A stretch of 64,000 nucleotides of DNA from a bacterium (GTDB lineage Bacteria > Patescibacteriota > UBA1384 > VFKW01): positions 177,165-241,164 of the forward strand of contig JAUSIS010000013.1 in NCBI GenBank assembly GCA_030647355.1, given 5' to 3'. Below, piece by piece: positions 5,651-30,228 of this stretch. The notes under the pieces are model-generated. The model ran no database searches, was not told the DNA's origin, and saw nothing but the letters and a program-made list of their open reading frames with translations. The translations under genes were made by a program, and so were the position numbers. Position 1 is the first letter of the stretch, and each line of letters starts with the position of its first letter.

Positions 5651-5744
5651 TTCTCTCCTTGTAGCTCTTCAATCGAATTGTACCGCCCAATCTCTCCTTT
5701 GTCAAAACCCACTTGTTAAAACGGCCGCCGCCACTCTTCTTTAC

Positions 5745-6582: not shown

Positions 6583-8595
6583 TTATTTCACTATAAACCT
6601 GACAATCAGCAGCGCCACAATATTCAACACCTTAATCATCGGATTGATCGCCGGACCGGCTGTATCTTTGTAAGGATCGCCAACCGTATCGCCCGTAACC
6701 GCCGCTTTGTGCGCTTCCGAACCTTTTCCGCCCAAATTACCTTCTTCAATGTACTTCTTGGCATTATCCCAAGCCGCCCCGCCAGTTGTCATCGAAATCG
6801 CTACAAACAAACCTGTTATAATCGCTCCGACCAGCATTCCACCCAGCGCCTGCGCGCCCAAGCCGAATCCAACGATAAACGGTGCCGCAATCGGTAACAA
6901 TGCCGGAAAAATCATCTCTCTTTGCGCCGCGGCAGTCACGATATCCACACATCTTGAATAATCCGGCTTTACCTTGCCTTCCATTATCCCTTTTCTCTCC
7001 TTAAACTGACGACGCACTTCCTGTACTACCGCACCGGCCGCTTTCCCCACCGCTTCCATCGAAAGCGCCCCAAAGAAGTAGGGGAGTAGTCCCCCGATAA
7101 ATAACCCGATCAATACTTTCGGTTCTTCAATCGAGAAACTAATGTGCTTGCCCATGTCGGCAATTTCTTGCGTATATGCAGAAAACAAGACAATCGCCGC
7201 CAATCCCGCCGAGGCAATAGCATAGCCCTTGGTTACCGCTTTGGTCGTATTGCCCACAGCATCCAGTGGATCCGTCACAGCCCGCACCTTATCACCCATC
7301 TCGGCCATCTCGGCAATTCCTCCGGCATTATCAGTAATCGGACCATAAGCATCAATCGCCACAATAATTCCTGTCATGGATAACATAGCAAACGCCGCTA
7401 CTGCCACTCCATATAATTCAGCCAAATTGTATGAAACCAAAACCCCAGCGGCAATCAGAAGGACCGGCCAGAAAGTCGATCTCATAGATAATGCCAAACC
7501 GGCAATAATATTCGTTCCATGCCCCGTAACTGACGCTTCCGCCACTTTCTGAACAGGTCTGTTCTTGGTAGATGTGTAATATTCGGTAATAATCACCATT
7601 CCTGCCGTCACTACCACGCCAACCAACGAACAATAGAACAGATCCATAACTGTCACGCCTTTCAAACCCTTCATCATCCAGTTTGTGATAGGGTAGAAAG
7701 CCGCAATGGCAATAACCGCCGAAACAATCAAGCCTTTATACAACGCTTTCATAATGTCATTATCTTTACCCAACCTGACAAAGAATGTCCCGATAACCGA
7801 AGCCAAAACTGATACCCCGCCCAAAGCTAGAGGATAGAGAACTGCATTCTCATTGTTTTTAAATAGTAAATTACCCAGTAACATCGCCGCTACAGCCGTC
7901 ACCACATAAGTTTCGAACAGATCAGCCGCCATACCCGCGTCATCTCCGACGTTATCGCCTACGTTATCGGCAATAACTGCCGGATTTCTTGGATCATCTT
8001 CCGGAATTCCCGCTTCCAATTTACCGACCAAATCAGCGCCGACATCGGCTGCTTTAGTATAAATTCCGCCTCCCAATCGAGCAAAAATAGAAATAAGCGA
8101 GGCTCCGAATGCCAAACCAATCAAACTCTTAACATCATGCGTAACAGAATAAAAAACCGTCACGCCAAGTAATGCCAAACCCGCTACCAGTAAACCAGTT
8201 ACAGCACCTCCGCGAAATGCCAAAGTTAAAGCTTGTCCTAAACCCTGTCTGGCTTTCTCGGCTGTCCTGACATTAGCTCTAACTGCTACATTCATGCCAA
8301 TATAACCGGCTGCTGCCGATAAAATCGCTCCCACGGCAAAGCCCCAAGCTGTTGTCCAGCCCAGTTGTTTGACAAAACCAATAACTAAAAATAATACTAA
8401 AGCTACCATCGCTACCACGCGATATTGACGATTCAAATATGCCGAAGCGCCCTGCTGAATCGCTAGTGCGATTTCCTGCATTTTCTTGTTGCCAGCATCT
8501 TGTGATAAAACCCAGCGAATTAAATAAACACCATACAAAATGGTGATAATTGAGGCACCGACTGCCAAACGAACAGGTGTAAGCCACTCTGGCAT
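6583..8595 (-). CDS. hppA: Membrane-bound proton/sodium-translocating pyrophosphatase
   Basis: 670 aa polytopic protein with hallmark H+-PPase motifs ([39 protein letters not shown]). Confidence 0.93.
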
Positions 8596-9861: not shown

Positions 9862-9905
9862 CACCAAGATCTCCAATATCACGATCCTCAAATAAACCCG
9901 TTTCT
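9862..9905 (-). pseudogene. Displaced remnant of the pyrB 3' end (att-like duplicate)
   Basis: atctccaatatcacgatcctcaaataaacccgttt is about 85-90% identical to 11798-11838 inside the pyrB C-terminal codons. Its reverse-complement translation KKRVYLRIVILEIL matches the pyrB C-terminus KNGLYLRMAILEML. Confidence 0.55.
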
Positions 9906-9996
9906 TCCTAAGTGTTGACCTAACTAAAAACTGCTATAAAATTAAGCCGAACAGCACCTTGACGTTTTAATCAATCCAACCTACGGAGGTCAACTC

Positions 9997-11724
9997 GTGA
10001 TTTACACCCTAACGAACAAGAATCCTGGTTTCCCCATCAGTGCCGCAATTATTGCTCAGATTGATGAGGAAAAAAGAGTCCGCCACACCCGCGAGATGAT
10101 TCTACTTTTCGGACTCGGCTCCCAGTTTGATCATCTTATCAAGCAGGAAATAGAAAAGCTGGGCGTCTTCTGTATGGTTGCCGACCCGGCCACTATCTCC
10201 TCTGATGATGTCAAGCAGGTAGCTCCCATCGGAATCATTTTGTCCGGCGGTCCCTCATCTGTTGTTGATGAACCGCCACCACTCGACAAGACCATTCTTG
10301 GACTGGGCATTCCTACCTTAGGCATCTGCCTGGGGCTGCAAGGAATTGCCCAGTATGTCGGCGCCGAAGTCACCTCCGCCTCGCAATCCCCCAGCGGTTA
10401 TCGCGAATTCGGCACCCACATCGCCACTATCACCGAAGACAGCTCATCGGTTAACGCCTTATTCCGTGGTTTGCCGCGGATGATGGATGTACTGGAGAGC
10501 CACGGCGACTGTGTTCAGCCGTCGCCTAAACTGACTATCTTGGCCACAACCGAGAATGCGCCGGTTGCCGCCGCTCGGGGCGCCGCTAAGGAGCATCAGC
10601 ACCTTTACGGTGTCCAGTTCCATCCCGAGGTGGAAGAGACCCAGTTCGGCAGCCGAATTCTGGCGAATTTCTGCTTTGGAGTTTGTGGCGCCAAGGAGAG
10701 TTTCCGGGCTCAGGATGAAGCGGAAATAAAAACCGAGTGGCTACGCCAAGAAATTGGCGATAAGCTTGTCGTTATTGGCCTGTCTGCCGGTTCTGATTCC
10801 TCAACCTGCGCCCATCTTGTCAAGAAAGCCTTGAATGACCAACCCGGACGCGTTCTCGGCGTCTACATTAAAGCTACCGATAGACCCGAAGATGAGGAAT
10901 TCGTCCGCCGGCACTTTGGCAATCAGGACTGGATTGAACTGAAGGTGGTGGATGCTACCTCTCAATTCCTGAAAGCTCTCCGTAACCAGCCGTGGTGGTG
11001 GCCATCTAAGTGGTGTCCGCTCCAGCGCCGCATTACCATGAAGCAGAAGCGCCGAGCGATGAAGCGCGTCTACCATCAAGTCCTTGAGGATGAGATCACT
11101 ATCTTCGCTGCCGCCAAGAACCGCCCACGTGACGAGGTTGTCATTATACAGGGAACCCTGTACACCGACCTTTGCGAAAGCGGCCATGGCTATAACACCG
11201 GTGCCCGTCGAGCCACCATCAAAGAGCACCACAATGTCGGCATTCCCTTCTCTGTTAAGGAGCTCTGTCCTCTGGATGACTGCGTCAAGGACAACGGCCG
11301 TAACATTGGTCGCGCCATCGGCGTGCCAGAGGAACTTTTAACGCGTCATCCCTTCCCCGGACCGGGATTAATAGTCCGGATTGAAGGCGAAGTGACCGCC
11401 GATAAGCTCCGTATTGCCCGCGCCGCCGATAAGATCTGGATAGACGAACTGCGCGATAAGGGCTTTTACCACAAGGTCTGGCAAGCCGGCGTCTTTGTAA
11501 CCCAGTCAGGTACAACCTGCACTAAGGGTGATGACGCCACTTCCGGTCTTGTTATTATCTTTTGGGCGGTGAATAGTACCAACGGCTTTACTGCCCGCGC
11601 TGCTGACCTTCCAATGTCTTTCCTTAGAAGGGTTAGTCAGCGCATGACTAACGAAATCCGTGAGGTGGGAGCGGCCGCATATCGAACTTCCGACAAACCG
11701 CCAACCACCATTGAATTCGGTTAA
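9997..11724 (+). CDS. guaA: GMP synthase (glutamine-hydrolysing), divergent
   Basis: 575 aa, GTG start with GGAGG SD. GATase-1 (GICLGLQ, FHPEV). PP-loop ATP pyrophosphatase with atypical LSAGSDSS. C-terminus DKPPTTIEFG matches the GuaA terminal KPPATIEWE motif. Higher GC than surroundings. Confidence 0.8.
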   Translation: MIYTLTNKNPGFPISAAIIAQIDEEKRVRHTREMILLFGLGSQFDHLIKQEIEKLGVFCMVADPATISSDDVKQVAPIGIILSGGPSSVVDEPPPLDKTILGLGIPTLGICLGLQGIAQYVGAEVTSASQSPSGYREFGTHIATITEDSSSVNALFRGLPRMMDVLESHGDCVQPSPKLTILATTENAPVAAARGAAKEHQHLYGVQFHPEVEETQFGSRILANFCFGVCGAKESFRAQDEAEIKTEWLRQEIGDKLVVIGLSAGSDSSTCAHLVKKALNDQPGRVLGVYIKATDRPEDEEFVRRHFGNQDWIELKVVDATSQFLKALRNQPWWWPSKWCPLQRRITMKQKRRAMKRVYHQVLEDEITIFAAAKNRPRDEVVIIQGTLYTDLCESGHGYNTGARRATIKEHHNVGIPFSVKELCPLDDCVKDNGRNIGRAIGVPEELLTRHPFPGPGLIVRIEGEVTADKLRIARAADKIWIDELRDKGFYHKVWQAGVFVTQSGTTCTKGDDATSGLVIIFWAVNSTNGFTARAADLPMSFLRRVSQRMTNEIREVGAAAYRTSDKPPTTIEFG

Positions 11725-11785: not shown

Positions 11786-12706
11786 TTATCTTACCAACAT
11801 CTCCAATATCGCCATCCTCAAATAAAGCCCGTTTTTTGCCTGGCGAAAATACGCCGCTCTCTTGTCATGATCCACTTCGGGAGCAATTTCCGTTATACGC
11901 GGTAATGGATGCATAATAATCGCCTGTTTATTCAGCTTACGCAAGAGCGCTTTGTCTACCTGATAAACATCTTTCACCTGATTGTAGTCATTTTCCGAGG
12001 CAAACCGCTCTTTCTGTACTCGCGTCATATACAAAACATCAATCTTGCCTAAGATTTCTCCAAAATCCTGCAGTTCCCTGAACTTCACCCCTCTTGCCTG
12101 CATTTCTGCCCTTATCTTCTGGGGAACGGCCAGCCTCGGTGGAGAAATTAAAAAAAATTGACAACTTTTGTAAAGCATCGCCAAATTAAGTAGAGAATGG
12201 ACCGTCCTCCCGTATAGTAAATCGCCTACTAAAGCAATTCTGAGCCCCTCGATTTTCCCCAATTCCTTGCGCATAGTATAAAAATCCAGCAATGCTTGCG
12301 TCGGATGCTCACCCGCACCGTCTCCGGCATTGATAATTGGGACCTCGGAAACCCTTGCCGCCCTCCTGGCTGCTCCTTGAATGTAATGGCGCATAACAAT
12401 CGCATCGGCATACCCGTTAACAACCCTGATAGTATCCTCCAATGTCTCGCCTTTAGATGAAGAACCAAATTGGCCGGCATTCTCACTCGAGATTACCTTG
12501 GCGCCCAATTTTAATGCTGCCGTCTCAAAGGAGAACCGAGTACGGGTACTAGGTTCAAAAAAAAGACAGGCGATGACCTTGTCTTGTAACGGTTTGGGCA
12601 ATGTGCCGGCTTGATCCCATCTTTCCCATTCATCCGTTCTCTGGAATATTTCTTCCAACATCCGGCTATCCTTAAATTGGCCGGAACTCACTAGATGTTT
12701 AATCAT
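11786..12706 (-). CDS. pyrB: Aspartate carbamoyltransferase catalytic subunit
   Basis: 306 aa with STRTR carbamoyl-phosphate motif and HPTQ (ATCase rather than OTCase HPCQ). Confidence 0.9.
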   Translation of the reverse strand: MIKHLVSSGQFKDSRMLEEIFQRTDEWERWDQAGTLPKPLQDKVIACLFFEPSTRTRFSFETAALKLGAKVISSENAGQFGSSSKGETLEDTIRVVNGYADAIVMRHYIQGAARRAARVSEVPIINAGDGAGEHPTQALLDFYTMRKELGKIEGLRIALVGDLLYGRTVHSLLNLAMLYKSCQFFLISPPRLAVPQKIRAEMQARGVKFRELQDFGEILGKIDVLYMTRVQKERFASENDYNQVKDVYQVDKALLRKLNKQAIIMHPLPRITEIAPEVDHDKRAAYFRQAKNGLYLRMAILEMLVR

Positions 12707-18856: not shown

Positions 18857-20023
18857 ATGGAAAGAACACTTTTTACGTCTGAATCGGTTACAGAGGGACA
18901 CCCCGACAAAATGGCTGACCAAATTTCCGATGCGTTGCTTGATGCCCTTCTGGAAAAAGATGAAAAATCCAGGGTGGCAATCGAAACGCTTCTTACTAAT
19001 GGAGTCTGTATCATTGCCGGAGAAGTCACTACCAACGCCTATGTAGATATGGCAAAAATCGCCCGCAAAGTAATCAAGGAAATTGGTTACAATGGCTGCG
19101 GCTTCCATCATGAAACAAGCGGAGTCATGACAGCCATTAAAGAGCAATCTTCCGATATTGCCCAAGGTGTTGACAGCTATGTCAAAACTGAAAGCGGTAA
19201 GATCGTCAGAGAAGATCTCGAGCATCTGGGCGCCGGCGATCAAGGATTAATGTTCGGATACGCCTGCAATGAAACGCCCGAGCTGATGCCCCTGCCAATA
19301 ATTCTCGCTCAACGGCTATGTCAAAAATTAGCATCCGTACGTAAAAAAGGGACTATTACCGGCTTAAGACCAGACGGTAAATCGCAAGTTACCATCGAGT
19401 ACGTTGACGACAAACCAAGCAGAATCCACACTGTACTCATTGCCGCCCAGCACGACCCATATAAAGACATCAAAAAACTCCGCAAAGAAATAACCGATAA
19501 AGTCATTAATCCCGTGCTAAAATCTTATGGACATCGGATAGATTCAAAAACCAAGATTTATATCAACACAACCGGCAAATTTGTCATTGGCGGACCGGAA
19601 GGCGACACCGGCTTGACCGGCCGTAAAATCATCGTTGACACTTACGGCGGCTATGCTCGGCATGGCGGAGGCGCTTTCTCGGGCAAGGATCCGTCCAAAG
19701 TTGACCGCTCCGGCGCCTATGCCGCCAGATGGGTAGCCAAAAGCATCGTCGCTTCGGGATTAGCCGAAAAATGCGAGGTTCAATTGGCTTATGCTATAGG
19801 TAAACCGGAACCGCTTTCTATCTATGTTAATACTTTCCAAACTAGTAAAAAGACTGACGAAGAAATAATTAAAAAAATCTCTGACAACTTCGACTTAAGG
19901 CCTGGCATGATTATCAAAAACTTAGGACTAAGACGCCCGTTATACCGCCAGTGTGCCGCTTATGGCCACTTTGGTCGTCCGGAACTAAACCTCCCATGGG
20001 AAAAAGCTAAAAAAATTAGATAG
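18857..20023 (+). CDS. metK: S-adenosylmethionine synthetase
   Basis: 388 aa. [13 protein letters not shown] and [16 protein letters not shown] motifs. RBS aaaggag. Confidence 0.95.
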
Positions 20024-20150
20024 CTTAATTCTTACCGCTTATTGCTTACCAACTTACTCCCAGTCATTGCGAGGCCTCAGCCGTGGCAAACCCCCCATAT
20101 CCTTCGAGCCCGGTCGAGAAGCTCTTCTTAATTCTTACTGCTTATTTCAC
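20024..20150. repeat. Composite dispersed repeat (family A ends plus family B core)
   Basis: cttaattcttaccgcttattgcttacc at each end of a cagtcattgcgaggcctcagccgtggcaaa...gagcccggtcgagaagctcttc core. About 95% identical to the copy at 22040-22160. Confidence 0.6.
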
Positions 20151-20164
20151 TTGGAGAAAATACT

Positions 20165-21094
20165 ATGCCTATCACCGTACACCACCAACCACCAACCACC
20201 AACCACCAACTAGTTATCGTCGGCTCTATCGGGCTAGACGATATTGAAACACCATTTGGCAAGGTTAAATCAGCTTTGGGGGGTAGCGCCATCTATGCAT
20301 CGCAAGCCGCCTCCTATTTTACCAAACCAAGTGTTGTGAGTATCATGGGCAACGATATACCAGAAGAATACTTGAAAATCCTCAACCGGTTCGATATTTC
20401 CGGCATAGCCCTAACTGAAAAAACCTTTCGTTGGACCGGGTCATACGAATATGATATGAATGAAGCCAAAACCATTGATACAAAACTAAATGCCTTATCT
20501 GAATTTGAAGCCAATGTCCCTAAAAATTATCAAGAGGCAAAATATCTCCTTCTCGGTAACATCGACCCCGACCTGCAACTCAAAGTATTAAGCCAAATGA
20601 AAGACCATCCCTTCACCTTGCTTGATACAATGAATTTTTGGATAACTTCGAAGCGCGACAAACTCGAACAAATAATCAATAAAGTCAACTTTTTGGTGAT
20701 CAACGAGGGGGAAGCAAGACAATTCTGCCAAACACCCAACCTGATAAAAGCCGGAAAAATGTTGCTCAATCTAGGACCAAAATTTATAGTCATCAAAAAA
20801 GGGGAACATGGTGCCTTGTTATTCTCTAATAATGATTTCTTCTCTGCTCCCAGCTATCCCCTGGAAGAATTAAAAGATCCGACCGGTTGCGGCGACTCAT
20901 TTGCTGGCGGGCTAATCGGTTATCTTGCCAAAACCGACCAAATTAGCGAAAAAAACATCAGAAAAGCCATTATTTATGGTACAGCCGTCGCTTCGTTTTG
21001 CGCTGAAGATTTTGGCACCAAGAAAACTATTAAATTAACAATTAAAGATATCGAGGAGCGATATGACTTTCTCACCAAAATCAGACAATTTTAA
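20165..21094 (+). CDS. PfkB-family carbohydrate/nucleoside kinase (probable adenosine kinase)
   Basis: 309 aa. Ribokinase-like fold. C-terminal DPTGCGDSFAGGLIGYL anion-hole motif. Sits between metK and ahcY. N-terminus contains HQPPTTNHQPPTTNHQ from a caccaac x4 DNA repeat (20180-20210). Confidence 0.75.
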   Translation: MPITVHHQPPTTNHQLVIVGSIGLDDIETPFGKVKSALGGSAIYASQAASYFTKPSVVSIMGNDIPEEYLKILNRFDISGIALTEKTFRWTGSYEYDMNEAKTIDTKLNALSEFEANVPKNYQEAKYLLLGNIDPDLQLKVLSQMKDHPFTLLDTMNFWITSKRDKLEQIINKVNFLVINEGEARQFCQTPNLIKAGKMLLNLGPKFIVIKKGEHGALLFSNNDFFSAPSYPLEELKDPTGCGDSFAGGLIGYLAKTDQISEKNIRKAIIYGTAVASFCAEDFGTKKTIKLTIKDIEERYDFLTKIRQF

Positions 21095-21147
21095 ATAAAA
21101 TCTCAAAATGTACTACCAAAAACCCCATAATATGATATAATTAAGAT

Positions 21148-21420
21148 ATGAATTATCAAAAATACACTTGGTATAATCGAAACGCAAAACTAGACAACCC
21201 CGAGACAATCCATCAAGTACTGTCATTTGGGAAAATTGATGAGATCAAGAAGATGGAACACATGCTTGGGTTAGAACAAATCACGCAAGTATATTTAAAA
21301 TATCCAAAAAATATTTATTCCCGACCGGTTTTCGCCTTTATCAACAAATATATTCTCAAAAACAAGGAGCCCATAGATGAGCGAAAATATCTCAAAAATA
21401 CATCTCGAAATCTTGAGTAA
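21148..21420 (+). CDS. Hypothetical small protein, possible antitoxin partner of the AbiEii-like gene
   Basis: 90 aa. Overlaps the downstream nucleotidyltransferase gene by 44 nt. No recognisable motif. Confidence 0.3.
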   Translation: MNYQKYTWYNRNAKLDNPETIHQVLSFGKIDEIKKMEHMLGLEQITQVYLKYPKNIYSRPVFAFINKYILKNKEPIDERKYLKNTSRNLE

Positions 21421-22039
21421 ACAGCAACAAGAAGTTCTGTTAAAACTCCAGCCGGTCCTAAAAGATTTCGTCCTCGGCGGCGGTACGGCGTTGGCGCTAC
21501 AGATCAAACATCGGCAATCTTTCGATTTCGATTTCTTTACTCTAAAACCAATTGATAAAAATCTACTGGAGAAAATTAGTCAACTCGGTTTTTCGTCAAC
21601 TGCGCCAATATTTGATAGCGTTGATGAATTAACTCTGATTATTGACAATGAAATCAAAATAACCTTTTTGTCTTATCCGTTTTCTAAAATATTTAATCTC
21701 GTTTTTCTAGATCAAAACATCCAAACATTCTCCCTCTCCGGCCTTGCAGCCCAAAAAGCTTATACAATCGGTAGGGGTGGAGTCTGGCGCGATTATTATG
21801 ATATTTTTACCTTACTTCGCCACAAATTTTTTACTCTAAAGGAAATCATCGGATTGACCCAGAAAAACTACGGTGACATTTTTAATCCCAAGCTGTTTTT
21901 GTCGCAGCTGGTCTATTTCGAGGACATTCAGGATTACTCCATTGAGCCAATCAATAATAGCTTAAACCCAATAGCTAGTAACGAAGTTAAAGCTTTTTTA
22001 GAAGAAGAAGTAGAAAAATATCTTGAAAGCATCAAATAG
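21377..22039 (+). CDS. AbiEii/AbiGii-family nucleotidyltransferase (type IV toxin-like, DUF1814)
   Basis: 220 aa. N-terminal FVLGGGTALALQIKHRQSFDFDFF matches the LKGGTAL...R.S.DIDF motif of AbiEii nucleotidyltransferases. Confidence 0.6.
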   Translation: MSENISKIHLEILSKQQQEVLLKLQPVLKDFVLGGGTALALQIKHRQSFDFDFFTLKPIDKNLLEKISQLGFSSTAPIFDSVDELTLIIDNEIKITFLSYPFSKIFNLVFLDQNIQTFSLSGLAAQKAYTIGRGGVWRDYYDIFTLLRHKFFTLKEIIGLTQKNYGDIFNPKLFLSQLVYFEDIQDYSIEPINNSLNPIASNEVKAFLEEEVEKYLESIK

Positions 22040-22160
22040 TCTTATTTCTTACCAGCTTACTCCCAGTCATTGCGAGGCCTCAGCCGTGGCAATCCCCCCC
22101 ATATTCTTCGAGCCCGGTCGAGAAGCTCTTCTTACTACTTACTAGCTTATTGCTTACTAG
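22040..22160. repeat. Composite dispersed repeat, second copy
   Basis: cagtcattgcgaggcctcagccgtggcaatccccccc...gagcccggtcgagaagctcttc flanked by cttaYttcttac...gcttattgcttac motifs. Confidence 0.6.
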
Positions 22161-22177
22161 CTTCTGAAAGGAACAAC

Positions 22178-23581
22178 ATGTCACTACCCGCCAAGTCAAA
22201 GGACTACAAAGTCGCCGACCTCTCGTTACACGAGTGGGGTCGAAAAGAAATTGAATCAGCCGAAAAAGAGATGCCAGGACTGATGGCTCTCCGCCAAGAA
22301 TATGGCTCCCAAAAGCCCCTGAAGAGCGCTAGGATAGCCGGTTGCCTGCATATGACTATTCAGACTGCTGTTTTAATTGAAACCCTCTTAGAGCTCGGCG
22401 CAGAAGTTCGCTGGTCCAGTTGCAATATCTTCTCCACTCAAGACCATGCTGCTGCTGCCATTGCCAAAAAAGATATACCTGTTTTTGCCTGGAAAGGTGA
22501 AACAGAAGAAGATTATTGGTGGTGCATCGAGCAAACCCTAAAATTCCCAACCAACCCCTCCGTCATTGCGAGGAACTCCTCTTCCGTCATTGCAAAAGCC
22601 TTTAGCCCCGGACTCGATCCGGGGGAAGAGAAGCAATCTTCCCAAGGTCCCAACATGATCCTCGACGACGGCGGAGACTTAACACTGCTCGTTCACGAAA
22701 AACACCCTGAACTTCTCAAGGACATCATCGGCGTCTCCGAAGAAACAACTACCGGAGTTCACCGGCTTTATCAGATGATGGAAGCGAAAACTTTGAAAAT
22801 GGCCGCCATAAATGTGAATGATTCGGTCACCAAATCAAAATTTGACAATAAATACGGCTGCCGCGAATCTCTCGCCGATGGCATCAAACGCGCAACCGAT
22901 ATCATGATTGCCGGAAAAGTAGTTGTTATCGCCGGTTATGGCGATGTCGGCAAAGGCTGTGCCCAGAGCATGCGCGGCTACGGCGCCCGAGTTATTATCA
23001 CAGAAATCGATCCGATAATTGCCCTGCAAGCAGCCATGGAAGGCTTTGAAGTTCTCACGATGGATCAAGCCGCCGAGATAGGGGACATATTTGTCACCGC
23101 CACGGGCTGCTGTGATGTTATAACTGGTAAGGATTTGGGAAAGATGAAAGACGGCGCAATAGTCTGCAACATCGGACATTTTGATAGCGAAATAGATGTC
23201 AAATGGCTGGAAGATCAAAAAGACATCAAGGAAGAAAACATAAAACCCCAAGTTGATCGGTTTATTTGGCCAAACGACAAATCAATTACCTTACTCTCCC
23301 GCGGCCGTCTCGTCAATTTAGGCAATGCCCACGGCCATCCCAGCTTCGTCATGAGCACCTCCTTCACCAATCAAACGCTCGCCCAGATCGCCCTCTACAC
23401 CGAGAGCAGAAAATACGAAAAAGGAAAAGTTTACACTCTTCCCAAAGAATTAGATGAAAAAGTCGCCCGCCTCCACCTCGACAAGCTCGGCGTCAAATTA
23501 ACTAAGCTTACTAAAAAACAAGCCGACTACCTAGGCATCCCCCAAGACGGCCCTTTCAAACCCGATTCCTATCGTTATTAG
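22178..23581 (+). CDS. ahcY: Adenosylhomocysteinase with a 33-aa in-frame repeat insertion
   Basis: Start at [26 protein letters not shown] (the ORF-track start at 22070 reads through the upstream repeat). NAD-binding [11 protein letters not shown]-terminus ...KPDSYRY. Insertion [33 protein letters not shown] between the conserved LKF and [10 protein letters not shown]. Confidence 0.92.
22550..22648 (+). repeat. Family-B palindromic repeat inserted in-frame inside ahcY
   Basis: 99 nt: two gtcattgc half-sites, palindrome ccccggactcgatccgggg and gaagagaagcaatc. Related to the intergenic gtcattgcgagg...gaagcaatc copies. Length is a multiple of 3 with no stop. Confidence 0.6.
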
Positions 23582-23616
23582 CTTAATTCTTACCGCTTAC
23601 GAGCTTATTGCTTATA

Positions 23617-23650
23617 TTTGCCCCTACAAACCCGACTCCTACCACTATTA
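23617..23650 (+). pseudogene. Short remnant copy of the ahcY terminal codons
   Basis: gcccctacaaacccgactcctaccactattaa versus the genuine 3' end ggccctttcaaacccgattcctatcgttattag (about 80% identity), 36 nt after the real stop and separated from it by a family-A repeat. Confidence 0.4.
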
Positions 23651-23737
23651 ACAATTGTTACTTGGGAATGAATTCCCCTCAATCCTTACTAGCGGCCTAT
23701 AGCCAAGACCACTGAAAAACTTACCCCATAGTAGTCA

Positions 23738-23835
23738 TTGCGAGCAAGGCGAAGCAATCTCTAAACAAGGAACTGATTGCCACGGCCATTAAAAACGGCC
23801 TCGCAATGACAATCTAGAATGTTTTTCAGCGATCC
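23738..23835. repeat. Family-B palindromic repeat plus gtttttcagcgatc arm
   Basis: gtcattgcgagcaaggcgaagcaatc ... ggcctcgcaatgac inverted pair, then gtttttcagcgatc, which is inverted relative to gatcgctgaaaaac at 25167-25181 on the other side of the AAA-ATPase gene. Confidence 0.55.
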
Positions 23836-23847
23836 TATAGCCACCTA

Positions 23848-23887
23848 TTGACAAAAATGACTCCATAAATTATAATAAATTTATGGA
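23848..23887 (+). promoter_or_regulatory. Consensus sigma70 promoter with overlapping palindromic operator
   Basis: TTGACA(23848-23853)-N17-TATAAT(23871-23876). Palindrome ctccataaatt-ataat-aaatttatggaa spans the -10, with a third ctccataaatt half-site just downstream. 50 nt before the AAA-ATPase ATG. Confidence 0.6.
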
Positions 23888-23926
23888 ATTGAACTCCATA
23901 AATTAATCTTAATATAAGGAGTTACT

Positions 23927-25066
23927 ATGACAAAATACACTCAAATACCAAGAGTATATGATAATCTGGAAAAATACTTAAAAAAAAATACCGTACTGGT
24001 GATTTATGGTCCAAGGAGAGTGGGGAAAACTACCATACTCAAAAACTTTCTAAAGAGCTATAAGGGCAAATACAAACTTAGCTCTGGAGACGATATTGAT
24101 GTCCAAGAAATCGTAGGATCCAGCCGCTTTTCTACTATTCTTGAATATGCAAGTAATATAGATCTTTTGGCCATTGATGAAGCTCAAAAGATTAGGGGGG
24201 TCGGTCAGGGTCTAAAAATTATAGTTGATCAGATAGAGGGCATTATTGTCATCGCAACAGGATCATCATCTTTTGATTTGGCTAATCAAGTCGGAGAACC
24301 ATTGACCGGACGCAAGAAGACGCTTACCCTATACCCCATAGCTCAAAAAGAACTCAAAGATTATTTTGGCGTATTTGAATTAAAGAAAAAACTACCGGAA
24401 TTTCTAGTTTTCGGTTCATATCCAACAATCATAACAGCCAAAACAAAAGAAGAAAAAACTCAACTACTTCTCGAAATAGTAAATTCATATCTCTTAAAAG
24501 ATATTTTAGCTTTGGATAATATCAAAAATTCCACTTTCATTATAAATCTCTTAAAGCTGCTCGCTTTTCAAGTTGGATCAGAAGTATCGCTAAATGAACT
24601 CGGCACCCAGCTTAATGCCGATGTTAAAACAGTAGCAAGATATTTAGATCTTCTTGAAAAAACCTTTGTCATAACAAGACTAGGTGGGTATAGTAGCAAT
24701 TTGAGGAAAGAAGTAACAGACAAATACAAATATTACTTCTGGGATAATGGAATTCGCAATGCAATCATCTCTCAATTCAATAATCTGGAGGACAGAAACG
24801 ATGTCGGTCAACTCTGGGAAAATTTCATCGTGATTGAACGGCTAAAGAAGTTGTCGTACGACAATATCTACGGCAATCGCTTTTTTTGGCGGACATATGA
24901 TCAAAAAGAAATAGACTTAATTGAAGAACGAGACGGAAAACTCTTTGGCTACGAAATAAAGTGGGGCACAAAGAAAGTCAAGAATCCCGACGAGTTTTTA
25001 AAAACATACAACAATGCCAGTTTTAAAGTGATAAGTCAGGATAATTACATAGAATTTATCAGCTGA
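23927..25066 (+). CDS. AAA+ ATPase with DUF4143-like C-terminal domain
   Basis: 379 aa. Walker A GPRRVGKTT, Walker B LLAIDEAQ. C-terminal region typical of the ATPase/DUF4143 family. RBS aaggag. Confidence 0.7.
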   Translation: MTKYTQIPRVYDNLEKYLKKNTVLVIYGPRRVGKTTILKNFLKSYKGKYKLSSGDDIDVQEIVGSSRFSTILEYASNIDLLAIDEAQKIRGVGQGLKIIVDQIEGIIVIATGSSSFDLANQVGEPLTGRKKTLTLYPIAQKELKDYFGVFELKKKLPEFLVFGSYPTIITAKTKEEKTQLLLEIVNSYLLKDILALDNIKNSTFIINLLKLLAFQVGSEVSLNELGTQLNADVKTVARYLDLLEKTFVITRLGGYSSNLRKEVTDKYKYYFWDNGIRNAIISQFNNLEDRNDVGQLWENFIVIERLKKLSYDNIYGNRFFWRTYDQKEIDLIEERDGKLFGYEIKWGTKKVKNPDEFLKTYNNASFKVISQDNYIEFIS

Positions 25067-25330
25067 TTAGCCTCGCCTCATTTATCATTCTGAATCTTCT
25101 CCCCCATCATTCTAACCCGTCATATCTTGTCATTCTGAACTGTCAAGTGAAGAAGCGAGATCGCTGAAAAACCTCCTTCGTCATTCCAAAACCGGGTGGC
25201 ACCCAATATTTGGAATCCAGATATGAGGTTAATAGATTCCGGATCCGCCTTGGCTCGAAAGACAGGTCTGGGATCCCATTCCTGAATCAAGTTCAGGACA
25301 GACTCCGACCGGAATGACGATTTTAAAGGC
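25060..25330. repeat. Cluster of gtcattctgaa / cgtcattcc repeat words with a long imperfect palindrome
   Basis: gtcattctgaa (x2), cgtcattccaaaacc ... ggaatgacg inverted about 140 bp apart, and gatcgctgaaaaac. A variant of the family-B gtcattgcgag repeat. Confidence 0.5.
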
Positions 25331-25501
25331 TTTCACTGGGTTTTTCAGCGGACTCGAAGCTTCACTTCACTTCCTACACCGTCAATTTGAAAAAAACCAA
25401 AAATCCAAAGCAAAAGGACCTGTCCCTAAGAGGTCTTACTTATTGATAAACATACCATTGATTATATATTCGAAATACATTAAAATTAAGTTGAGGCAAA
25501 A

Positions 25502-25843
25502 ATGAAACTAAATAAATTGATCAATGAAACAAAAGGGAAATATTTTAGAAAATTTGATCCTGAAATGGTTCACTTTTATCGTACAAAAATGCCTAAAAAA
25601 TTAAATGTTAAAATTCATCAAGATGAAAACTGTAATAAATATTGGGCTGAAATTGATTTTGATGGTAAGTCTTCTAAAGATAAAATTTTTACTCAAGCAA
25701 AAAATCTGAACAATATCGACACTATGATCAATGATGCCATTGCTACATATTATGAAGTACCTTTTATATACGCAAAGCATATAGTAATAAGCAAAAATTA
25801 TGAACCTGAGGGAAAACTCAAAGAAACACTCAGAACTACCTAA
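25502..25843 (+). CDS. Putative HicB-like (UPF0150) antitoxin
   Basis: 113 aa. YWAEIDFDGKSS...FTQAKNLNNIDTMINDAIATYYE resembles the HicB N-domain (Y.A...G...TQGDTLEEALENAKEAIELYLE). Sits 8 nt upstream of hicA. Very low GC. Confidence 0.4.
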   Translation: MKLNKLINETKGKYFRKFDPEMVHFYRTKMPKKLNVKIHQDENCNKYWAEIDFDGKSSKDKIFTQAKNLNNIDTMINDAIATYYEVPFIYAKHIVISKNYEPEGKLKETLRTT

Positions 25844-25851
25844 GGAATAGG

Positions 25852-26076
25852 ATGGGGCTCAAACCTTGTACTGCGAAAAAGTTAATACGCTCATTTATTA
25901 AAAATGGATGTATTATTATTGATGGCGGGAAAGGCTCTCATACAAAAATTAAACACATCAAAACTGGCGCCACAACGACAATCCCAAAAGGAGATCTAAC
26001 CAACGTACGACATGCAATACTCAACTGGGCTGAAAATCTCGGAATCACCAAAGACAATATAGAACAATATTTATAA
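25852..26076 (+). CDS. hicA: HicA-family mRNA interferase toxin
   Basis: 74 aa. LKPCTAKKLIRSFIKNGCIIIDGGKGSHTKIKH...TTTIPKG matches the HicA (YcfA) pattern K..EL...L...G......GSH......TIP.H. Confidence 0.65.
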   Translation: MGLKPCTAKKLIRSFIKNGCIIIDGGKGSHTKIKHIKTGATTTIPKGDLTNVRHAILNWAENLGITKDNIEQYL

Positions 26077-26289
26077 AAGATTACATGGGATTTATCAGCT
26101 AATTAGCTTATCCCACCTGCAGAACCCCGCTAAAGGCGGTAGCCACTTATTAGCTTACAAGCTTATTGCATATTAATATTATCGTTCGAGGCCAGGCCGA
26201 GAACTTAACCTTTTAGTTCTCGATTCTCTTCGATCTCTCGAACAATATTCTATTCTTAATCCTTACAATCTTACCAGCTTATCGCTTGC

Positions 26290-26408
26290 CGGCTCGTAAT
26301 CATCTCGACAAACTCGGCGTCAAGCTAACAAAATTAACCAATAAACAAGCCGACTACCTCGGCCTCCCCGTAGGTGGCCCATATAAAAGTGATAATTACC
26401 GATACTAG
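26290..26408 (+). pseudogene. Displaced copy of the ahcY 3' end, about 2.7 kb downstream of the intact gene
   Basis: Translates to [35 protein letters not shown], against the genuine AhcY C-terminus [35 protein letters not shown]. About 75% nucleotide identity. No upstream ahcY body. Confidence 0.65.
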
Positions 26409-26424
26409 CACGTAGGAATAAATT

Positions 26425-27408
26425 ATGATTATAGCAAAAACACCCATCCGAATTAGTTTTGCCGGGGGCGGAAGCGATCTTCATTCATTCTACAAAAATC
26501 AACTGGGTGCTGTTGTTAGTACCACAATTGATAAATATATATTTGTAACTGTTAATAAAAACTTCGACGCGGGAGTTAAGCTTAAATATTCAAAATCGGA
26601 AGATGTTAAAAAAGTTACTCAACTCAAACACAATCGCGCTAAAGCTATCCTTAATTATCTAAAATTAGATGGAGGGTTAGAAATATCTTCTCTAGCCGAT
26701 ATACCCTCCAAAGGTACTGGTCTCGGCTCGTCAAGCTCTTTCACCGTCGCTTTGCTTCATGCTCTTCATACTTATAAGCAAGAATACGCTTCTCCTGAAC
26801 AATTAGCCCAAGAAGCTTGCCGAATAGAAATTGATATTTTAAAAGAACCAATCGGCAAACAAGACCAATATGCAGCCGCCTATGGTGGCTTAAATTTTAT
26901 CCAATTCAACCCTGATAAATCTGTTTTTGTTGACCCAATCATCTGCAAACAAGAAACCATCCTGAAATTAGAAGGTAATCTCTTAATACTTTTTACAGGT
27001 ATTACACGCAGTGCATCTAGTATCCTGTCAAGCCAGAAAAAGAATATGGAAACTGAAACTAAAAAAACTCAAATAATGAAAAAAATGGTAGCATTGGCTC
27101 GTGATCTAAAAAACGAACTTCAAAAAAATAATGTTGAAGTTTTCGGGCAAATTCTTCACGAAAACTGGTTACTTAAGAAAGAAATGGCGAGCGGTATATC
27201 CAACGACAAAATTGATTACTGGTATAATAAAGCCATGAAAGCTGGTGCTACTGGTGGCAAATTATTGGGTGCAGGAGGAGGGGGATTTCTATTATTTTAT
27301 GCCCCTAAAGAGAAACATGATGCTATCAAGCGATCTCTAAAATCTTTGCGCCCTTTGGACTTTAAATTTGATTACCAAGGAAGTAAAATAATTTTTATCC
27401 ATGATTAA
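26425..27408 (+). CDS. hddA: D-glycero-alpha-D-manno-heptose 7-phosphate kinase (GHMP kinase)
   Basis: 327 aa. PIRISFAGGGSD and GHMP motif PSKGTGLGSSSSFTVALL. Followed by gmhA, gmhB and hddC. Confidence 0.75.
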   Translation: MIIAKTPIRISFAGGGSDLHSFYKNQLGAVVSTTIDKYIFVTVNKNFDAGVKLKYSKSEDVKKVTQLKHNRAKAILNYLKLDGGLEISSLADIPSKGTGLGSSSSFTVALLHALHTYKQEYASPEQLAQEACRIEIDILKEPIGKQDQYAAAYGGLNFIQFNPDKSVFVDPIICKQETILKLEGNLLILFTGITRSASSILSSQKKNMETETKKTQIMKKMVALARDLKNELQKNNVEVFGQILHENWLLKKEMASGISNDKIDYWYNKAMKAGATGGKLLGAGGGGFLLFYAPKEKHDAIKRSLKSLRPLDFKFDYQGSKIIFIHD

Positions 27409-27991
27409 TAAAGGAGAACTCATGATAACAACTGCAAATAAATATTTGGGAGAACTGCAAGAAACTATATCAGGATTGCCACTCAAAACACTTGAGAAAA
27501 TCAAAGACATACTTCTTGAAGCCCACCAGAAAAACCGGCAGATCTTTATGATTGGTAATGGAGGAAGCGCTTCCACCTCCTCCCACATAACTTGCGATAT
27601 TGCCAAAGGTATTCTAGGTCACACTGGCGAAAAAAAATCCAAACGCTTCAAAATCATTTCCCTTAATGATAATGTCGCTCTAATGAGTGCCTGGGCTAAC
27701 GACACCATCTACGACAATATTTTTTCTGAACAAATTAAAAACCTTGCCAAAAAGGATGATATCGTAATTGCCTTAAGTGCCAGCGGTAATTCACCGAACA
27801 TCATTAAAGCCGTTGAGACGGCTAACGAAATTAGCTGCATTACGATTGGCTTGGCTGGTTTCAATGGAGGCAAACTTGCAAAATTAACAGATATTTGTCT
27901 GACGGCTAAAATTGACAAATATGATATTGCTGAAGACACTCATCTGATTCTCGGCCACATTCTTACTAGATGGTTTTTTGAGAATGTATAA
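27401..27991 (+). CDS. gmhA: Sedoheptulose-7-phosphate isomerase (SIS domain)
   Basis: 196 aa. IFMIGNGGSASTSSH and SASGNSPN motifs. Overlaps hddA by 8 nt. Confidence 0.85.
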   Translation: MINKGELMITTANKYLGELQETISGLPLKTLEKIKDILLEAHQKNRQIFMIGNGGSASTSSHITCDIAKGILGHTGEKKSKRFKIISLNDNVALMSAWANDTIYDNIFSEQIKNLAKKDDIVIALSASGNSPNIIKAVETANEISCITIGLAGFNGGKLAKLTDICLTAKIDKYDIAEDTHLILGHILTRWFFENV

Positions 27992-28520
27992 ATCGGATCG
28001 CTCTATCTAAATCCCGCAATATATAGTCCGGTCTATGTATCCAATTTTCGACGAATTGAACCTGTTTTTTACCCCTACCTGTTAAGACTAAAATCGTTCG
28101 ACAACCGGCAATTGCCCCGGCTTCGATCCCTTCTTGAGCATCGTCAATCATAAAAGAATTAGTTAAATCAATATGAAGATCTTGTGCCGCACGTAAGAAC
28201 ATGCCAGGTTTCGGTTTGCGGCAATCGCAATTATCCCCGTACCCATGCGGACAATGATAAAAAGCTCTAATTCTGTCATTTCCCAGAATTTTCTGGATAT
28301 TTTCATGAATATTGTACAAATCATTTTCACTCATTAACCCCCTGCTAATGCCTCTCTGGTTAGTAAGTACCACGCTTAAAAATTCACTTCTGGCAAGTAA
28401 TCTCAACCCCGCCAGCGCATTCTTATAAAACCTAAATTCACCCCATGACTTAATATAATCATGCTCCTTAGTAATATGATTAATCACCCCATCACGATCT
28501 AAGAAAACTGCCTTGTTCAT
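27966..28520 (-). CDS. gmhB: D,D-heptose 1,7-bisphosphate phosphatase (HAD superfamily)
   Basis: 184 aa. AVFLDRDGVIN and VLTNQ HAD motifs. CxHxxxxxxCxC zinc-binding loop as in GmhB. Confidence 0.85.
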   Translation of the reverse strand: MNKAVFLDRDGVINHITKEHDYIKSWGEFRFYKNALAGLRLLARSEFLSVVLTNQRGISRGLMSENDLYNIHENIQKILGNDRIRAFYHCPHGYGDNCDCRKPKPGMFLRAAQDLHIDLTNSFMIDDAQEGIEAGAIAGCRTILVLTGRGKKQVQFVENWIHRPDYILRDLDRAIRFIHSQKTI

Positions 28521-29230
28521 GAAAAACCTAATTCGTCCACCTTGCCCTGAGCCAACCGATAAGTCTCTAGCGTTCCAATATCCAACAAGAACTCTGTCAT
28601 TTTGTAACCATAAAGAGATTGATTATCTTCCAGTAATTTTGGGAATAAATCATGCCCAAAATCGAAAAATTTACCTTCTGGGATATATTTAATGACCTCC
28701 GATTCGCAAAGATAGATACCAGCATTCGCCCAGTTAGTCGTAATTTCTTCTGACTTAGGTTTTTCTTTAAATGATACTATTCTAGCATCTGAATCCATCT
28801 CAACAATTCCTTTACTTTCAGGATGCTCTTCGTAATATAAAGCTATAGTTACCAACCCACCTTTTTTCCGATGAAATTTGGCTAAATTATCTAGATTAAT
28901 GTTCGTTAAATTATCACCGTAGAAAACAAAAAAAGGTTGATCAAAAAATTCTGAAATTTTTTTGAGCGCGCCAGCAGTACCCATAAGCTCAGCCTCCTTA
29001 GAGTATTTTATTGTCATACCGAACTTTTTGCCATCACCAAAATACTCCATAATCATCTCTGGTAAGCAATATAAATTCATCGCACAATCTTTCACACCAA
29101 ATTTTTTCAATAAACGCAACTGATACTCAAGTAATGGCTTATTCCCAATTGGTAGCATTGGTTTAGGGATTTTATCAGTTAGAGGACGCAGTCTGGTTCC
29201 CAACCCAGCCGCTAATATCATGGCCTTCAC
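28517..29230 (-). CDS. hddC: D-glycero-alpha-D-manno-heptose 1-phosphate guanylyltransferase
   Basis: 237 aa. MKAMILAAGLGTRLRPLT...PKPMLPI sugar-1-P nucleotidyltransferase motif. Coupled to gmhB (TGA/ATG overlap). Confidence 0.7.
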   Translation of the reverse strand: MKAMILAAGLGTRLRPLTDKIPKPMLPIGNKPLLEYQLRLLKKFGVKDCAMNLYCLPEMIMEYFGDGKKFGMTIKYSKEAELMGTAGALKKISEFFDQPFFVFYGDNLTNINLDNLAKFHRKKGGLVTIALYYEEHPESKGIVEMDSDARIVSFKEKPKSEEITTNWANAGIYLCESEVIKYIPEGKFFDFGHDLFPKLLEDNQSLYGYKMTEFLLDIGTLETYRLAQGKVDELGFS

Positions 29231-30228
29231 TACTTCTCCTTGTATCCATTCGGATGCTTTTTATACCACTCCCAAGCAGTCTCAATAATTGTCTTCAAAT
29301 CCGAATATTGATTCTTGTACCCCAAGACATCTGACATCTTGCTCGAATCAGCTATTAATCGGGCAGGGTCACCCGGCCGTCTCCCTTCAACAATTACCTT
29401 GAATTCTTTACCCGATATCTTTTTTACCCATTCGATAATCTCTTTCACACTATAACCCTTCTTATTACCACAGTTAAAATAATCGGTACCGCAACCATTG
29501 TCTAAGTATTTCAAGGCAGCTACATGAATCCCGGCAAGATCGCTAACATGGATAAAATCTCTAATACCTGTACCATCTGGAGTTGGATAATCATCGCCGA
29601 ATATTTTAAAAGCCTCTCTCTTGCCTAAAGCAGTCAATATTGCCAGAGGAATCACATGCGTTTCTGGATCATGATTTTCCCCGATCTTACCATCGGGATC
29701 AGCCCCCGATGCACAAAAATAACGCAGCGACACCGACTTAATGCCATAAGCCCTGTCATAAGCCCCCAGAATCTGCTCAAACTGCCATTTAGTTAGCCCA
29801 TAAGGATTCGTCGGGCTTTTTGGATGATCTTCATTTGTGACCTCACTCTGCGGCTCTCCGTAGACAGAAGCGCTAGATGAAAAAACTATTCGCCTTACCC
29901 CATTGCCCCGCATCGCTTCCAATAGATTCATGCCACCAGTAATATTATTATCAAAATACTTGGCTGGATTTTCCACCGAATCAGGCACCGAAGCATACGC
30001 CGCAAAATGCACAACGCCGTCAATCTTATTTTCTGCAAATATTTGGTTCAACTGTTCTTTGTCCCGCAAGTCGCATTTGACTAACTTACCCCCGACTACA
30101 GCATTCTCGAATCCATTCTCCAAGCTATCAACTACCACCAATTCATAGCCCTGTTTCAGTAATTCTTTAACTGTATGCGACCCAATATACCCTGCCCCAC
30201 CGGTCACTAAAATACAATATTTTCCCAT
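29230..30228 (-). CDS. galE: UDP-glucose 4-epimerase
   Basis: 332 aa. ILVTGGAGYIGSH, catalytic YGxxK (YGLTK) and SSSASVYG. Confidence 0.85.
   Translation of the reverse strand: MGKYCILVTGGAGYIGSHTVKELLKQGYELVVVDSLENGFENAVVGGKLVKCDLRDKEQLNQIFAENKIDGVVHFAAYASVPDSVENPAKYFDNNITGGMNLLEAMRGNGVRRIVFSSSASVYGEPQSEVTNEDHPKSPTNPYGLTKWQFEQILGAYDRAYGIKSVSLRYFCASGADPDGKIGENHDPETHVIPLAILTALGKREAFKIFGDDYPTPDGTGIRDFIHVSDLAGIHVAALKYLDNGCGTDYFNCGNKKGYSVKEIIEWVKKISGKEFKVIVEGRRPGDPARLIADSSKMSDVLGYKNQYSDLKTIIETAWEWYKKHPNGYKEK

Follow-up and report, generated by a model that had tools for sequence, protein, structure and literature searches.

We analysed a 64-kb window of a Patescibacteria metagenome-assembled genome (MAG; contig JAUSIS010000013.1, positions 177,165 to 241,164), focusing on the DNA downstream of ahcY, the gene for S-adenosylhomocysteine hydrolase. 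The results showed that an ATPase gene of the PDC-S01 family and a HicA-like toxin gene lie downstream of an intact ahcY and upstream of a displaced copy of its 3' end, an arrangement that a preliminary description, made from the letters of the window, had recognized as an insertion. We put the probability at about 0.55 that the interval from 23.58 to 26.41 kb consists of small selfish or defence cassettes, free of any integrase, which stacked up at the ahcY 3' end, and that units bracketed in this way spread by homologous recombination. The displaced copy is a scar of such integrase-free defence and toxin cassettes, and not evidence of a dedicated ahcY attachment site.

Copies of the ahcY 3' end and the PDC-S01 cassette

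The ahcY gene of the window is full length with its native C-terminus, and the surrogate 3' end leaves the target gene whole. The closest relatives of its product are 82% and 80% identical, the nearest ones belonging to Patescibacteria/Magasanikbacteria, and the AhcY, ATPase and GHMP kinase proteins of the window are each 100% identical to NCBI proteins labelled 'MAG: bacterium'. We aligned the copies of the 3' end with each other. The results showed that the large repeat (23474-23582 and 26301-26409) is 74% identical over 109 nucleotides (nt) without gaps; over the last 108 nt, 80 positions are identical, as are 29 of 37 residues including the stop. At the protein level the match of the displaced end reaches upstream to 26292 (ARNHLDK...), and the 40-residue open reading frame (ORF) at 26286-26408 alone matches positions 263-299 of the 299 in the Pfam AdoHcyase profile (E=1.1e-12). 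Because no other site in the 64-kb window reaches 55 of 111 identities to the ahcY 3' end, this match is not a chance one; no third copy of the 109-nt repeat was found within the window. A much shorter copy of the last ahcY codons, the mini remnant, lies directly downstream (23620-23650 and 23550-23580, 81% identical over 31 nt). Both alignments support the preliminary description, and the ahcY stop, the mini copy, the promoter (12/12 consensus positions), the operator, the DUF4143 AAA-ATPase and the junction to hddA were all recovered where it had placed them.

An assembly artefact was considered and ruled out, as the repeat copies are just 74% identical and two assemblies concur: an independent Logan assembly (L001, SRR13727527) is 100% identical to the window across 22933-30000.

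The mini remnant has a counterpart, GPFKPNSYRY-stop at 3979-4008, in the closest relative of this locus, L003 (Logan SRR30681598), which has the gene order metK, pfkB, ahcY, mini remnant, ATPase. Between the ahcY stop and the mini remnant, the window has a CTTA-repeat element of 38 nt as filler, and L003 has an unrelated segment of about 60 nt. The mini remnant is a third bracketed slot at the ahcY end, which either predates the split between the window and L003 or was exchanged between both.

Within ahcY itself, an in-frame insertion of about 32 residues (22540-22645) separates the conserved LKF and GPN and includes the GTCATTGCGAGG motif that is found in the intergenic repeats. In the same AhcY loop, relatives P0002, P0004, P0011 and P0081 carry unrelated insertions of 20-35 residues, for example HPVIPAKAGIHKNTILDPRVKPEDD. 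These loop insertions look like translated repeats of the miniature inverted-repeat transposable element (MITE) type.

The ATPase encoded downstream matched the PADLOC PDC-S01 profile PDLC04789 almost from end to end (E=1.1e-143, residues 10-378, profile positions 6-373 of 375). Its Walker A (G28-T36) and Walker B (D84/E85) motifs and a D330...E343xK345 motif are conserved across 30 ATPase homologues. DUF4143/COG1373 has been placed in the PD-(D/E)XK superfamily (PMC3424549). PDC-S01 has been described as a candidate that lacks validation, ranking fourth in frequency among the 'defences' of prokaryotes, in which an ATPase is fused to a PD-(D/E)XK domain (PMC12988326); it is a single-gene system with much horizontal transfer (PMC12988326; PMC3424549).

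Comparison with L003 showed that the segment 23836-25071 has 93.7% nucleotide identity, with 78 mismatches and no indel, and that 60 of the 72 mismatches within the ORF fall at codon position 3. The flanking genes are far more diverged, at 75.8% (metK), 74.0% (pfkB) and 77.0% (ahcY) identity, and third-position (silent-site) divergence is 0.16 for the cassette versus 0.42-0.53 for the three genes. From the ahcY stop to the cassette, the window and L003 are unalignable except for the mini remnant. The cassette is thus mobile, since it is 93.7% identical between two genomes while metK, pfkB and ahcY are 74-77% identical.

Its limits were defined by homology to cassettes elsewhere, which starts at 23836-23847 and ends at 25061-25071. 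In six cassettes the homology begins abruptly at the -35 box, spans the palindrome ACTCCATAAATTATAATAAATTTATGGAGT and stops no more than 5 nt from the stop codon. Related cassettes with 76-88% protein identity lie in unrelated contexts: after an AbiE pair and before glycosyltransferases (L084), between T2SSE ATPase and pilin genes (L085), and between a radical-SAM gene and a GT-C enzyme (L087, L088 and L089). These comparisons show the unit 23836-25071 as a discrete mobile cassette, which is probably autoregulated through the predicted palindrome overlapping its -10 box. Collections of plasmids and phages yielded only 6 and 4 distant ATPase homologues, respectively, and no vector was found there.

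Direct repeats around the cassette family

We scanned metagenomes with the ATPase alignment, which added 80 loci, and retained 55 non-redundant loci with at least 600 nt on each side. For each locus, the 1 kb upstream of the ATPase was compared with the 1 kb downstream, and 410 ORFs and 110 cross-locus pairs served as controls. The results showed direct repeats at 16 of the 55 loci, with a length of at least 45 nt at 14, and inverted repeats at 2, only 1 of them with at least 45 nt. Among the controls, a single cross-locus pair (1/110) and 25/410 ORFs scored, the latter nearly all marginally, and a repeat of at least 45 nt occurred at 2/410 ORFs. The excess of such long repeats at cassette loci over control ORFs was highly significant (Fisher p=2e-12).

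The family repeats range from 20 to 292 nt in length and from 75 to 100% in identity. As a rule, copy 2 starts 1-90 nt past the ATPase stop, and the end of copy 1 lies 70-190 nt upstream of the ATG; given these positions around the ATPase, the inserted unit is 1.25-1.35 kb in at least 10 loci. The repeated sequence differs from locus to locus, with targets in ahcY, a T2SSE ATPase gene, a radical-SAM gene, tRNA-Leu and intergenic DNA. In L085 it is the T2SSE 3' end plus 29 nt (126 nt, 92%), with copy 2 beginning 7 nt past the ATPase stop; in L087, L088 and L089 it lies inside the 3' part of the radical-SAM gene (148 nt, 86%), with copy 2 beginning 18 nt past the stop; in L084 it is the ATPase's own 3' end (41 nt, 85%). 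In L150 the bracketing repeat (3782-3858 and 5456-5533, 78 nt, 96%) overlaps a tRNA-Leu gene on the minus strand (5459-5545). Across 18 flanking repeats of at least 45 nt we found no shared 10-mer beyond chance and no core motif. These comparisons show that the cassette family is typically bracketed by long direct repeats of the sequence into which it was inserted, in many cases the upstream gene's 3' end.

Bracketing is therefore a property of the cassette family and not of ahcY. The preliminary description had proposed that the ahcY 3' end was used repeatedly as an attachment site. The ahcY end was indeed used more than once, as the mini remnant is there too, but no recombinase was detected in the genes scanned around the island, and the repeats share no core. 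A dedicated site did not hold up: neither an ahcY remnant nor the ATPase was present at any of 80 other ahcY loci, and the same cassettes are bracketed by unrelated genes elsewhere.

Two of these loci carry further structures. In L084, an allelic remnant of the ATPase end (KVINQDNYLDFIG-stop, 4101-4141) stands directly after the AbiEii stop and upstream of the cassette promoter, which suggests either that two cassettes once stood in tandem or that AbiE was inserted at the 3' end of an ATPase gene. In L085, a 91-nt element follows each copy of the T2SSE-end repeat (5696-5786 and 7304-7394) in opposite orientations, with 96% complementarity.

The insert of the window is not the single island that had been described, but at least two nested insertions, the ATPase cassette and a HicA block bracketed by a 28-nt repeat of the ATPase end. 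This repeat comprises the last ATPase codons, the stop and 5 nt beyond. Its copy 2 continues as TTAGCTTA...TCCC, matching the sequence that follows the ATPase in L003 (L003 5275-5305 and window 26080-26110, 90%). As the 28-nt repeat brackets the block and the continuation is as in L003, 25072-26079 is a nested insertion at the ATPase 3' end. The comparison thus shows the HicA block as a second insertion, bracketed in the same manner as the first.

The preliminary description had called the genes of this block a low-GC hicB-hicA pair. The low G+C content was confirmed, dropping to 0.25-0.32 over 25350-25950, and the toxin assignment stands marginally, with a match to PF07927 at 28.0 bits against a gathering threshold of 27 and to the PDB HicA entry 5yrz at E=0.025. 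The 'hicB', a 113-aa ORF, matches no family: searches of Pfam and PDB sequences gave no match for it, nor did HicB, UPF0150 or DUF1902 individually, and only 1 of the 18 members of its family, a distant one, matches DUF1902 and UPF0150 (E=0.013). The predicted local distance difference test score (pLDDT) of its model was 53 from the single sequence and 75 from the 18-sequence alignment, which gave a beta-beta-beta-alpha core; a Foldseek search of the PDB with the latter model returned nothing significant (best E=0.15).

To compare the repeat copies codon by codon, we pooled five loci (ahcY, T2SSE, radical-SAM, a 151-aa ORF in L090 and the short case L152), four of them with substantial coding overlap. 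The two copies differ at 6, 8 and 39 sites of codon positions 1, 2 and 3, respectively; 36 codon changes are synonymous and 11 non-synonymous, and copy 2 has no stop. Repeats over spurious short ORFs had no codon-position bias. Since the differences are mostly synonymous, the copies are two functional alleles and not a duplicate in decay. The ATPase-end remnants in the window and in L084 showed the same allelic behaviour. The coding repeats are thus shown to differ as two functional alleles do, mainly at synonymous sites, so one copy was, until recently, a working gene end in another lineage.

The displaced ahcY end, previously described as decaying, fits this pattern. It contains no stop or frameshift, and all but two of its substitutions are states found in functional AhcY homologues. 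On an AhcY profile built from 118 homologues it scored 79, and the live end 93. When we simulated random mutation of the live end, a score of 79 without a stop was reached in 0.045% of trials at 12 substitutions and never at 16 or more; the actual differences number about 30. The two ahcY ends are 71-74% identical, as distant from each other as the window is from L002 or L003. The earlier suggestion that one 3' end came with the integrating DNA therefore stands in so far as the copies derive from different ahcY alleles, one of them foreign.

These data bear on a model in which every event is a long target duplication made in situ, for example by staggered breaks 30-150 nt apart, cut by the PD-(D/E)XK nuclease of the cassette and then filled in. 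The repeats would be identical at birth, and no donor allele would be involved. Such a model has been discussed for restriction-modification systems (PMC2853133), and it agrees with the identical or near-identical repeats at L097 (115 nt, 100%), L137 (47 nt, 100%) and L150 (96%), with the junctions lying tight against the 1.25-1.35-kb unit, and with the conserved D330...E343xK345 motif. It does not account for the older coding repeats, in which copy 2 retains its frame and differs mainly at synonymous sites, or for the near-native profile score of the ahcY remnant. One selected and one neutral copy would give differences of about 27%, 27% and 46% by codon position, a poor fit to the observed counts (chi-square p=3e-4, binomial p=8e-5). 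The model is rescued only by adding a later allelic replacement of the live gene, and we regard it as unlikely.

Proposed mechanism and competing explanations

Spread of the bracketed unit by homologous recombination is proposed because the repeat copies are allelic. In a founding insertion with long target duplication, copy 1 would keep the upstream gene intact and copy 2 would keep the downstream gene's own 5' context. The two copies could then serve as portable homology arms: the cassette with its target fragment would loop out or be taken up as DNA, and would recombine into any relative with the same conserved gene end. A loop-out circle could enter by a Campbell-type single crossover; alternatively, a linear repeat-cassette-repeat fragment could enter by a double crossover within the resident gene end. 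By either route, copy 1 and copy 2 would be donor and recipient alleles. The breaks may come from the cassette's own nuclease, of which the PD-(D/E)XK motif is intact.

Several results weigh against this account. The evidence is comparative throughout, drawn from metagenomic contigs, and about 70% of the cassette-family loci have no repeat. The near-identical cassette of L003 has no ahcY repeat within the 323 nt available downstream; since L003 lacks a large repeat there and the DNA that separates the cassette from ahcY is not conserved either, the cassette was last transferred without an ahcY arm. The 109-nt repeat of the window brackets the whole composite, and that the ATPase cassette was the primary insert is suggested by the family pattern. 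The two ahcY copies share identical runs of at most 17 nt, a short length for recombination of the RecA type. When set against L002 and L003, neither copy had a clear donor/recipient mosaic by which the native one could be told: copy 1 is 80% identical to L003 versus 70% for copy 2, and copy 2 is marginally closer to L002 (78% versus 77%). Sliding identity along ahcY revealed no recombination breakpoint. Finally, the target duplication at ahcY is deduced, as no empty site was recovered for this locus. The preliminary description had proposed ahcY next to hddA in relatives as the empty site, but this adjacency was not found, the closest hddA relatives (71-72% identity) having a flippase or methyltransferase gene upstream. 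L002 carries ahcY with neither insert nor remnant, but with a different downstream gene. When GTDB genomes were scanned with AhcY, most of those recovered were from distant phyla and just two were Magasanikbacteria; none of them had a remnant, the ATPase or an empty site.

A second rival is one-sided, homology-facilitated illegitimate recombination during natural transformation. A foreign fragment would be anchored by homology in or before ahcY, and its other end would be joined inside the resident ahcY 117 nt before the stop, leaving the resident 3' end as a scar; nothing in this process is specific to the cassette. Patescibacteria are generally thought competent for DNA uptake. The allelic repeat copies and the lack of a detected recombinase suit this explanation, as does a 44-nt remnant of a pyrB-like 3' end across the housekeeping gene guaA in the same window. 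It leaves unexplained why copy 2 starts 1-90 nt past the cassette stop in most loci, why the inserts cluster at 1.25-1.35 kb, and why long repeats are enriched about 70-fold around this gene family. We judge it somewhat less probable than duplication in situ.

The classical explanation, an integrative element that used the ahcY 3' end as its bacterial attachment site (attB), carried a surrogate 3' end and has since lost its tyrosine or serine recombinase, appears improbable. The geometry of intact gene, insert and displaced 3' end fits it, with a 17-nt identical core (AAACAAGCCGACTACCT); tRNA-Leu is duplicated at one locus of the family (L150), and a serine recombinase gene lies about 3 kb upstream in L085. 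However, Pfam scans of the genes from 9997 to 32440, with precomputed Pfam matches to about 37 kb, detected no recombinase domain in the island or within about 10 kb of it. The 2.7-kb insert carries only the ATPase, the 113-aa ORF and HicA, with no mobility gene, and the inserts measure just 1.3-2.8 kb. The absence of remnant and cassette from all 80 other ahcY loci, the lack of a common core in the repeats at 18 loci and the range of repeat lengths in the family (20-290 nt) also speak against it.

That the remnant is what is left of a paralogous or tandem second ahcY, mostly deleted and independent of the insertions, is hardly credible: the divergence of the copy is indeed that of an orthologue in a different lineage (70-78% identity to L002 and L003), but other genes flanking cassettes of this family show the same arrangement, an operon-type junction with hddA marks the exact end of the remnant, and no relative with two ahcY copies was found.

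Returning to cassettes spread through allelic repeats, a stronger version is a tentative possibility. PDC-S01 genes might be minimal autonomous mobile elements, 1.3-kb promoter-plus-ORF cassettes in which the encoded ATPase/nuclease itself would bring about insertion with long target duplication. The conserved gene ends, once duplicated, would act as built-in homology arms for recombinase-free hops between diverged genomes, and the cassette's own 3' end would be a landing pad for toxin-antitoxin cassettes. If the bracketing pattern holds, a highly abundant, uncharacterised 'defence' family would be a self-contained, integrase-free mobile cassette, and both immunity and selfish mobility could underlie the abundance of PDC-S01 and its enrichment in defence islands. 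The range of insertion with long target duplication would then extend beyond restriction-modification systems, and the duplicated conserved gene end as a portable homology arm would be a testable idea. For annotation, short in-frame 'pseudogene' ends beside accessory genes in genomes of the candidate phyla radiation (CPR) would mark a recent cassette gain and its donor allele.

Surrounding features and comparison with known systems

The features of the interval and its borders are collected in Table 1.

Table 1. Positions of features between ahcY and the hddA-like gene, numbered within the 64-kb window.
Feature	Position	Strand	Basis
ahcY (S-adenosylhomocysteine hydrolase), intact, 467 aa	22178-23581	+	Pfam AdoHcyase E=2e-135, AdoHcyase_NAD E=5e-79
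Direct-repeat copy 1, functional ahcY 3' end	23474-23582	+	repeat search, ungapped alignment
CTTA-type short tandem repeat element at the ahcY stop codon	23579-23617	+	repeat families D2, D4, D5, D7
Mini remnant of the last ahcY codons, (C)PYKPDSYHY-stop	23619-23651	+	31 nt, 81%, local alignment
Palindromic MITE-like filler	23700-23835	.	inverted repeats 23707-23720 / 23821-23834
PDC-S01 cassette: promoter, operator and ATPase ORF	23836-25071 (1.24 kb, 1236 nt)	+	PADLOC PDC-S01, Pfam, cross-locus homology limits
Consensus promoter TTGACA-17-TATAAT	23848-23876	+	promoter scan, 12/12 positions
Palindromic operator (predicted), 31-nt inverted repeat over the -10 box	23860-23890 / 23892-23922	+	inverted-repeat search
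AAA_14 + DUF4143 ATPase/PD-(D/E)XK ORF	23927-25066	+	Pfam
ATPase 3'-end repeat copy 1, live end including stop	25044-25071	+	28 nt, 89%
Nested insertion: repeat cluster, promoter-like site, 113-aa ORF, HicA-like toxin	25072-26079	+	
Inverted repeat in the repeat cluster of the nested block	25142-25173 / 25339-25370		
Promoter-like site	25443-25470	+	promoter scan
113-aa ORF, putative antitoxin	25502-25843	+	
HicA-like toxin	25852-26076	+	Pfam HicA_toxin PF07927
ATPase 3'-end repeat copy 2 (DYMGFIS-stop, in frame), allelic remnant	26080-26107	+	28 nt, 89%
Spacer: CTTA-type repeats 26154-26175 and 26270-26291, MITE-like stretch 26171-26252	26108-26291	.	
Direct-repeat copy 2, displaced ahcY 3' end	26292-26408	+	Pfam AdoHcyase E=1.1e-12, tblastn E=3e-16
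GHMP kinase (hddA-like), first gene of heptose-nucleotide cluster	26425-27408	+	Pfam GHMP_kinases_N, _C

CTTA-type tandem repeats of 7-8 nt recur after stop codons in the window, L002 and L003, and the 21-mer TAGCTTAATTCTTACCGCTTA is identical at the stop codons of metK (20021-20041) and ahcY (23579-23599). Within the MITE-like filler upstream of the cassette, GTCATTGCGAG stands at 23734-23747 and its inverse at 23797-23810; comparison of this filler (23700-23835) with L003 showed no homology. The MITE-like stretch of the downstream spacer (26171-26252) is 75.6% identical to L087 5714-5795, a segment upstream of the cassette at that locus. None of the island's filler segments occurs in multiple copies in the window, and an Rfam search of 19800-26600 returned no match.

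On the far side, 16 nt separate the stop codon of the ahcY remnant from the ATG of the hddA-like gene (26425), an operon-type spacer. This gene scored 180 bits against the NCBIfam HddA model, under the 600-bit equivalog cut-off. Its cluster, with GmhA-like, HAD-phosphatase and nucleotidyltransferase genes, is conserved in L170-L174.

Other repeats were observed upstream of the island. The 3' end of a pyrB-like aspartate/ornithine carbamoyltransferase gene on the minus strand (11786-12706) is repeated, over 44 nt and at 84% identity, at 9863-9906, with its counterpart at 11793-11836; the remnant sits across guaA (9997-11724), so that gene-end copies bracket a single housekeeping gene. An element of about 105 nt follows the metK and AbiEii stops in 94-95% identical copies (20038-20139 and 22041-22143), bracketing pfkB and an AbiEi/AbiEii-like pair (21148-22039). 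The slot between pfkB and ahcY holds a 23S_rRNA_IVP gene in L002 and is empty in L003. A 53-nt direct repeat (83%) lies at 5755-5807 and 6027-6079, with a spacing of 272 nt.

We compared the island with known systems. Insertion with long target duplication has been described for restriction-modification gene complexes (Nobusato et al. 2000; Furuta, Abe and Kobayashi 2010, PMC2853133). In these cases mobility genes are absent, and the repeats, of 46 to >400 bp, sometimes lie over a neighbour's 3' end; the cases come mostly from naturally competent species, and it has been hypothesised that the units pass through a cycle in which they invade, amplify through the repeats and are released (PMC2853133). 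The loci studied here resemble them in having a small, nuclease-type selfish or defence insert without a transposase or integrase, direct repeats of >30 bp up to hundreds with variable length and sequence, and a gene end that is kept intact. By the measures used for such insertions, the 109-nt repeat exceeds 30 bp, the nested 28-nt repeat is borderline, and the insert is below 20 kb. They differ in cargo, which here is a single PDC-S01 ATPase/PD-(D/E)XK gene or a HicA module and no restriction plus modification pair, and in host, here a Patescibacteria MAG. The repeat copies differ as well, being diverged alleles with a signature of purifying selection, whereas most published restriction-modification cases are near-identical, with a matching empty site.

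For PDC-S01, the window gene is a full-length match by hidden Markov model to the PADLOC family (COG1373; AAA_14 + DUF4143), an ATPase fused to a PD-(D/E)XK domain. In the literature that we searched, PDC-S01 figures as a defence candidate from 'guilt-by-embedding', with no description of it as a discrete promoter-plus-ORF cassette with flanking long repeats. Insertion accompanied by duplication of a long target, known for restriction-modification systems, appears to be unreported for PDC-S01.

The HicA block shares with type II HicAB modules a small HicA-like protein, an adjacent small gene, its own promoter, low G+C content and a place among defence genes. It differs in having the partner gene upstream of hicA, the typical hicAB gene order being the reverse. 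Like integrase islands and prophages in the 3' ends of genes or tRNAs (bounded by attL and attR), the locus consists of an intact gene, an insert and a displaced 3' fragment, one end being foreign; unlike them, it has no recombinase that we could find, no common core, targets that vary by locus, and inserts of 1.3-2.8 kb. Taken together, PDC-S01 cassettes and toxin-antitoxin modules that accrete at gene 3' ends, bracketed by long allelic repeats, look like a new form of gene mobility within a class that is known but has received little study.

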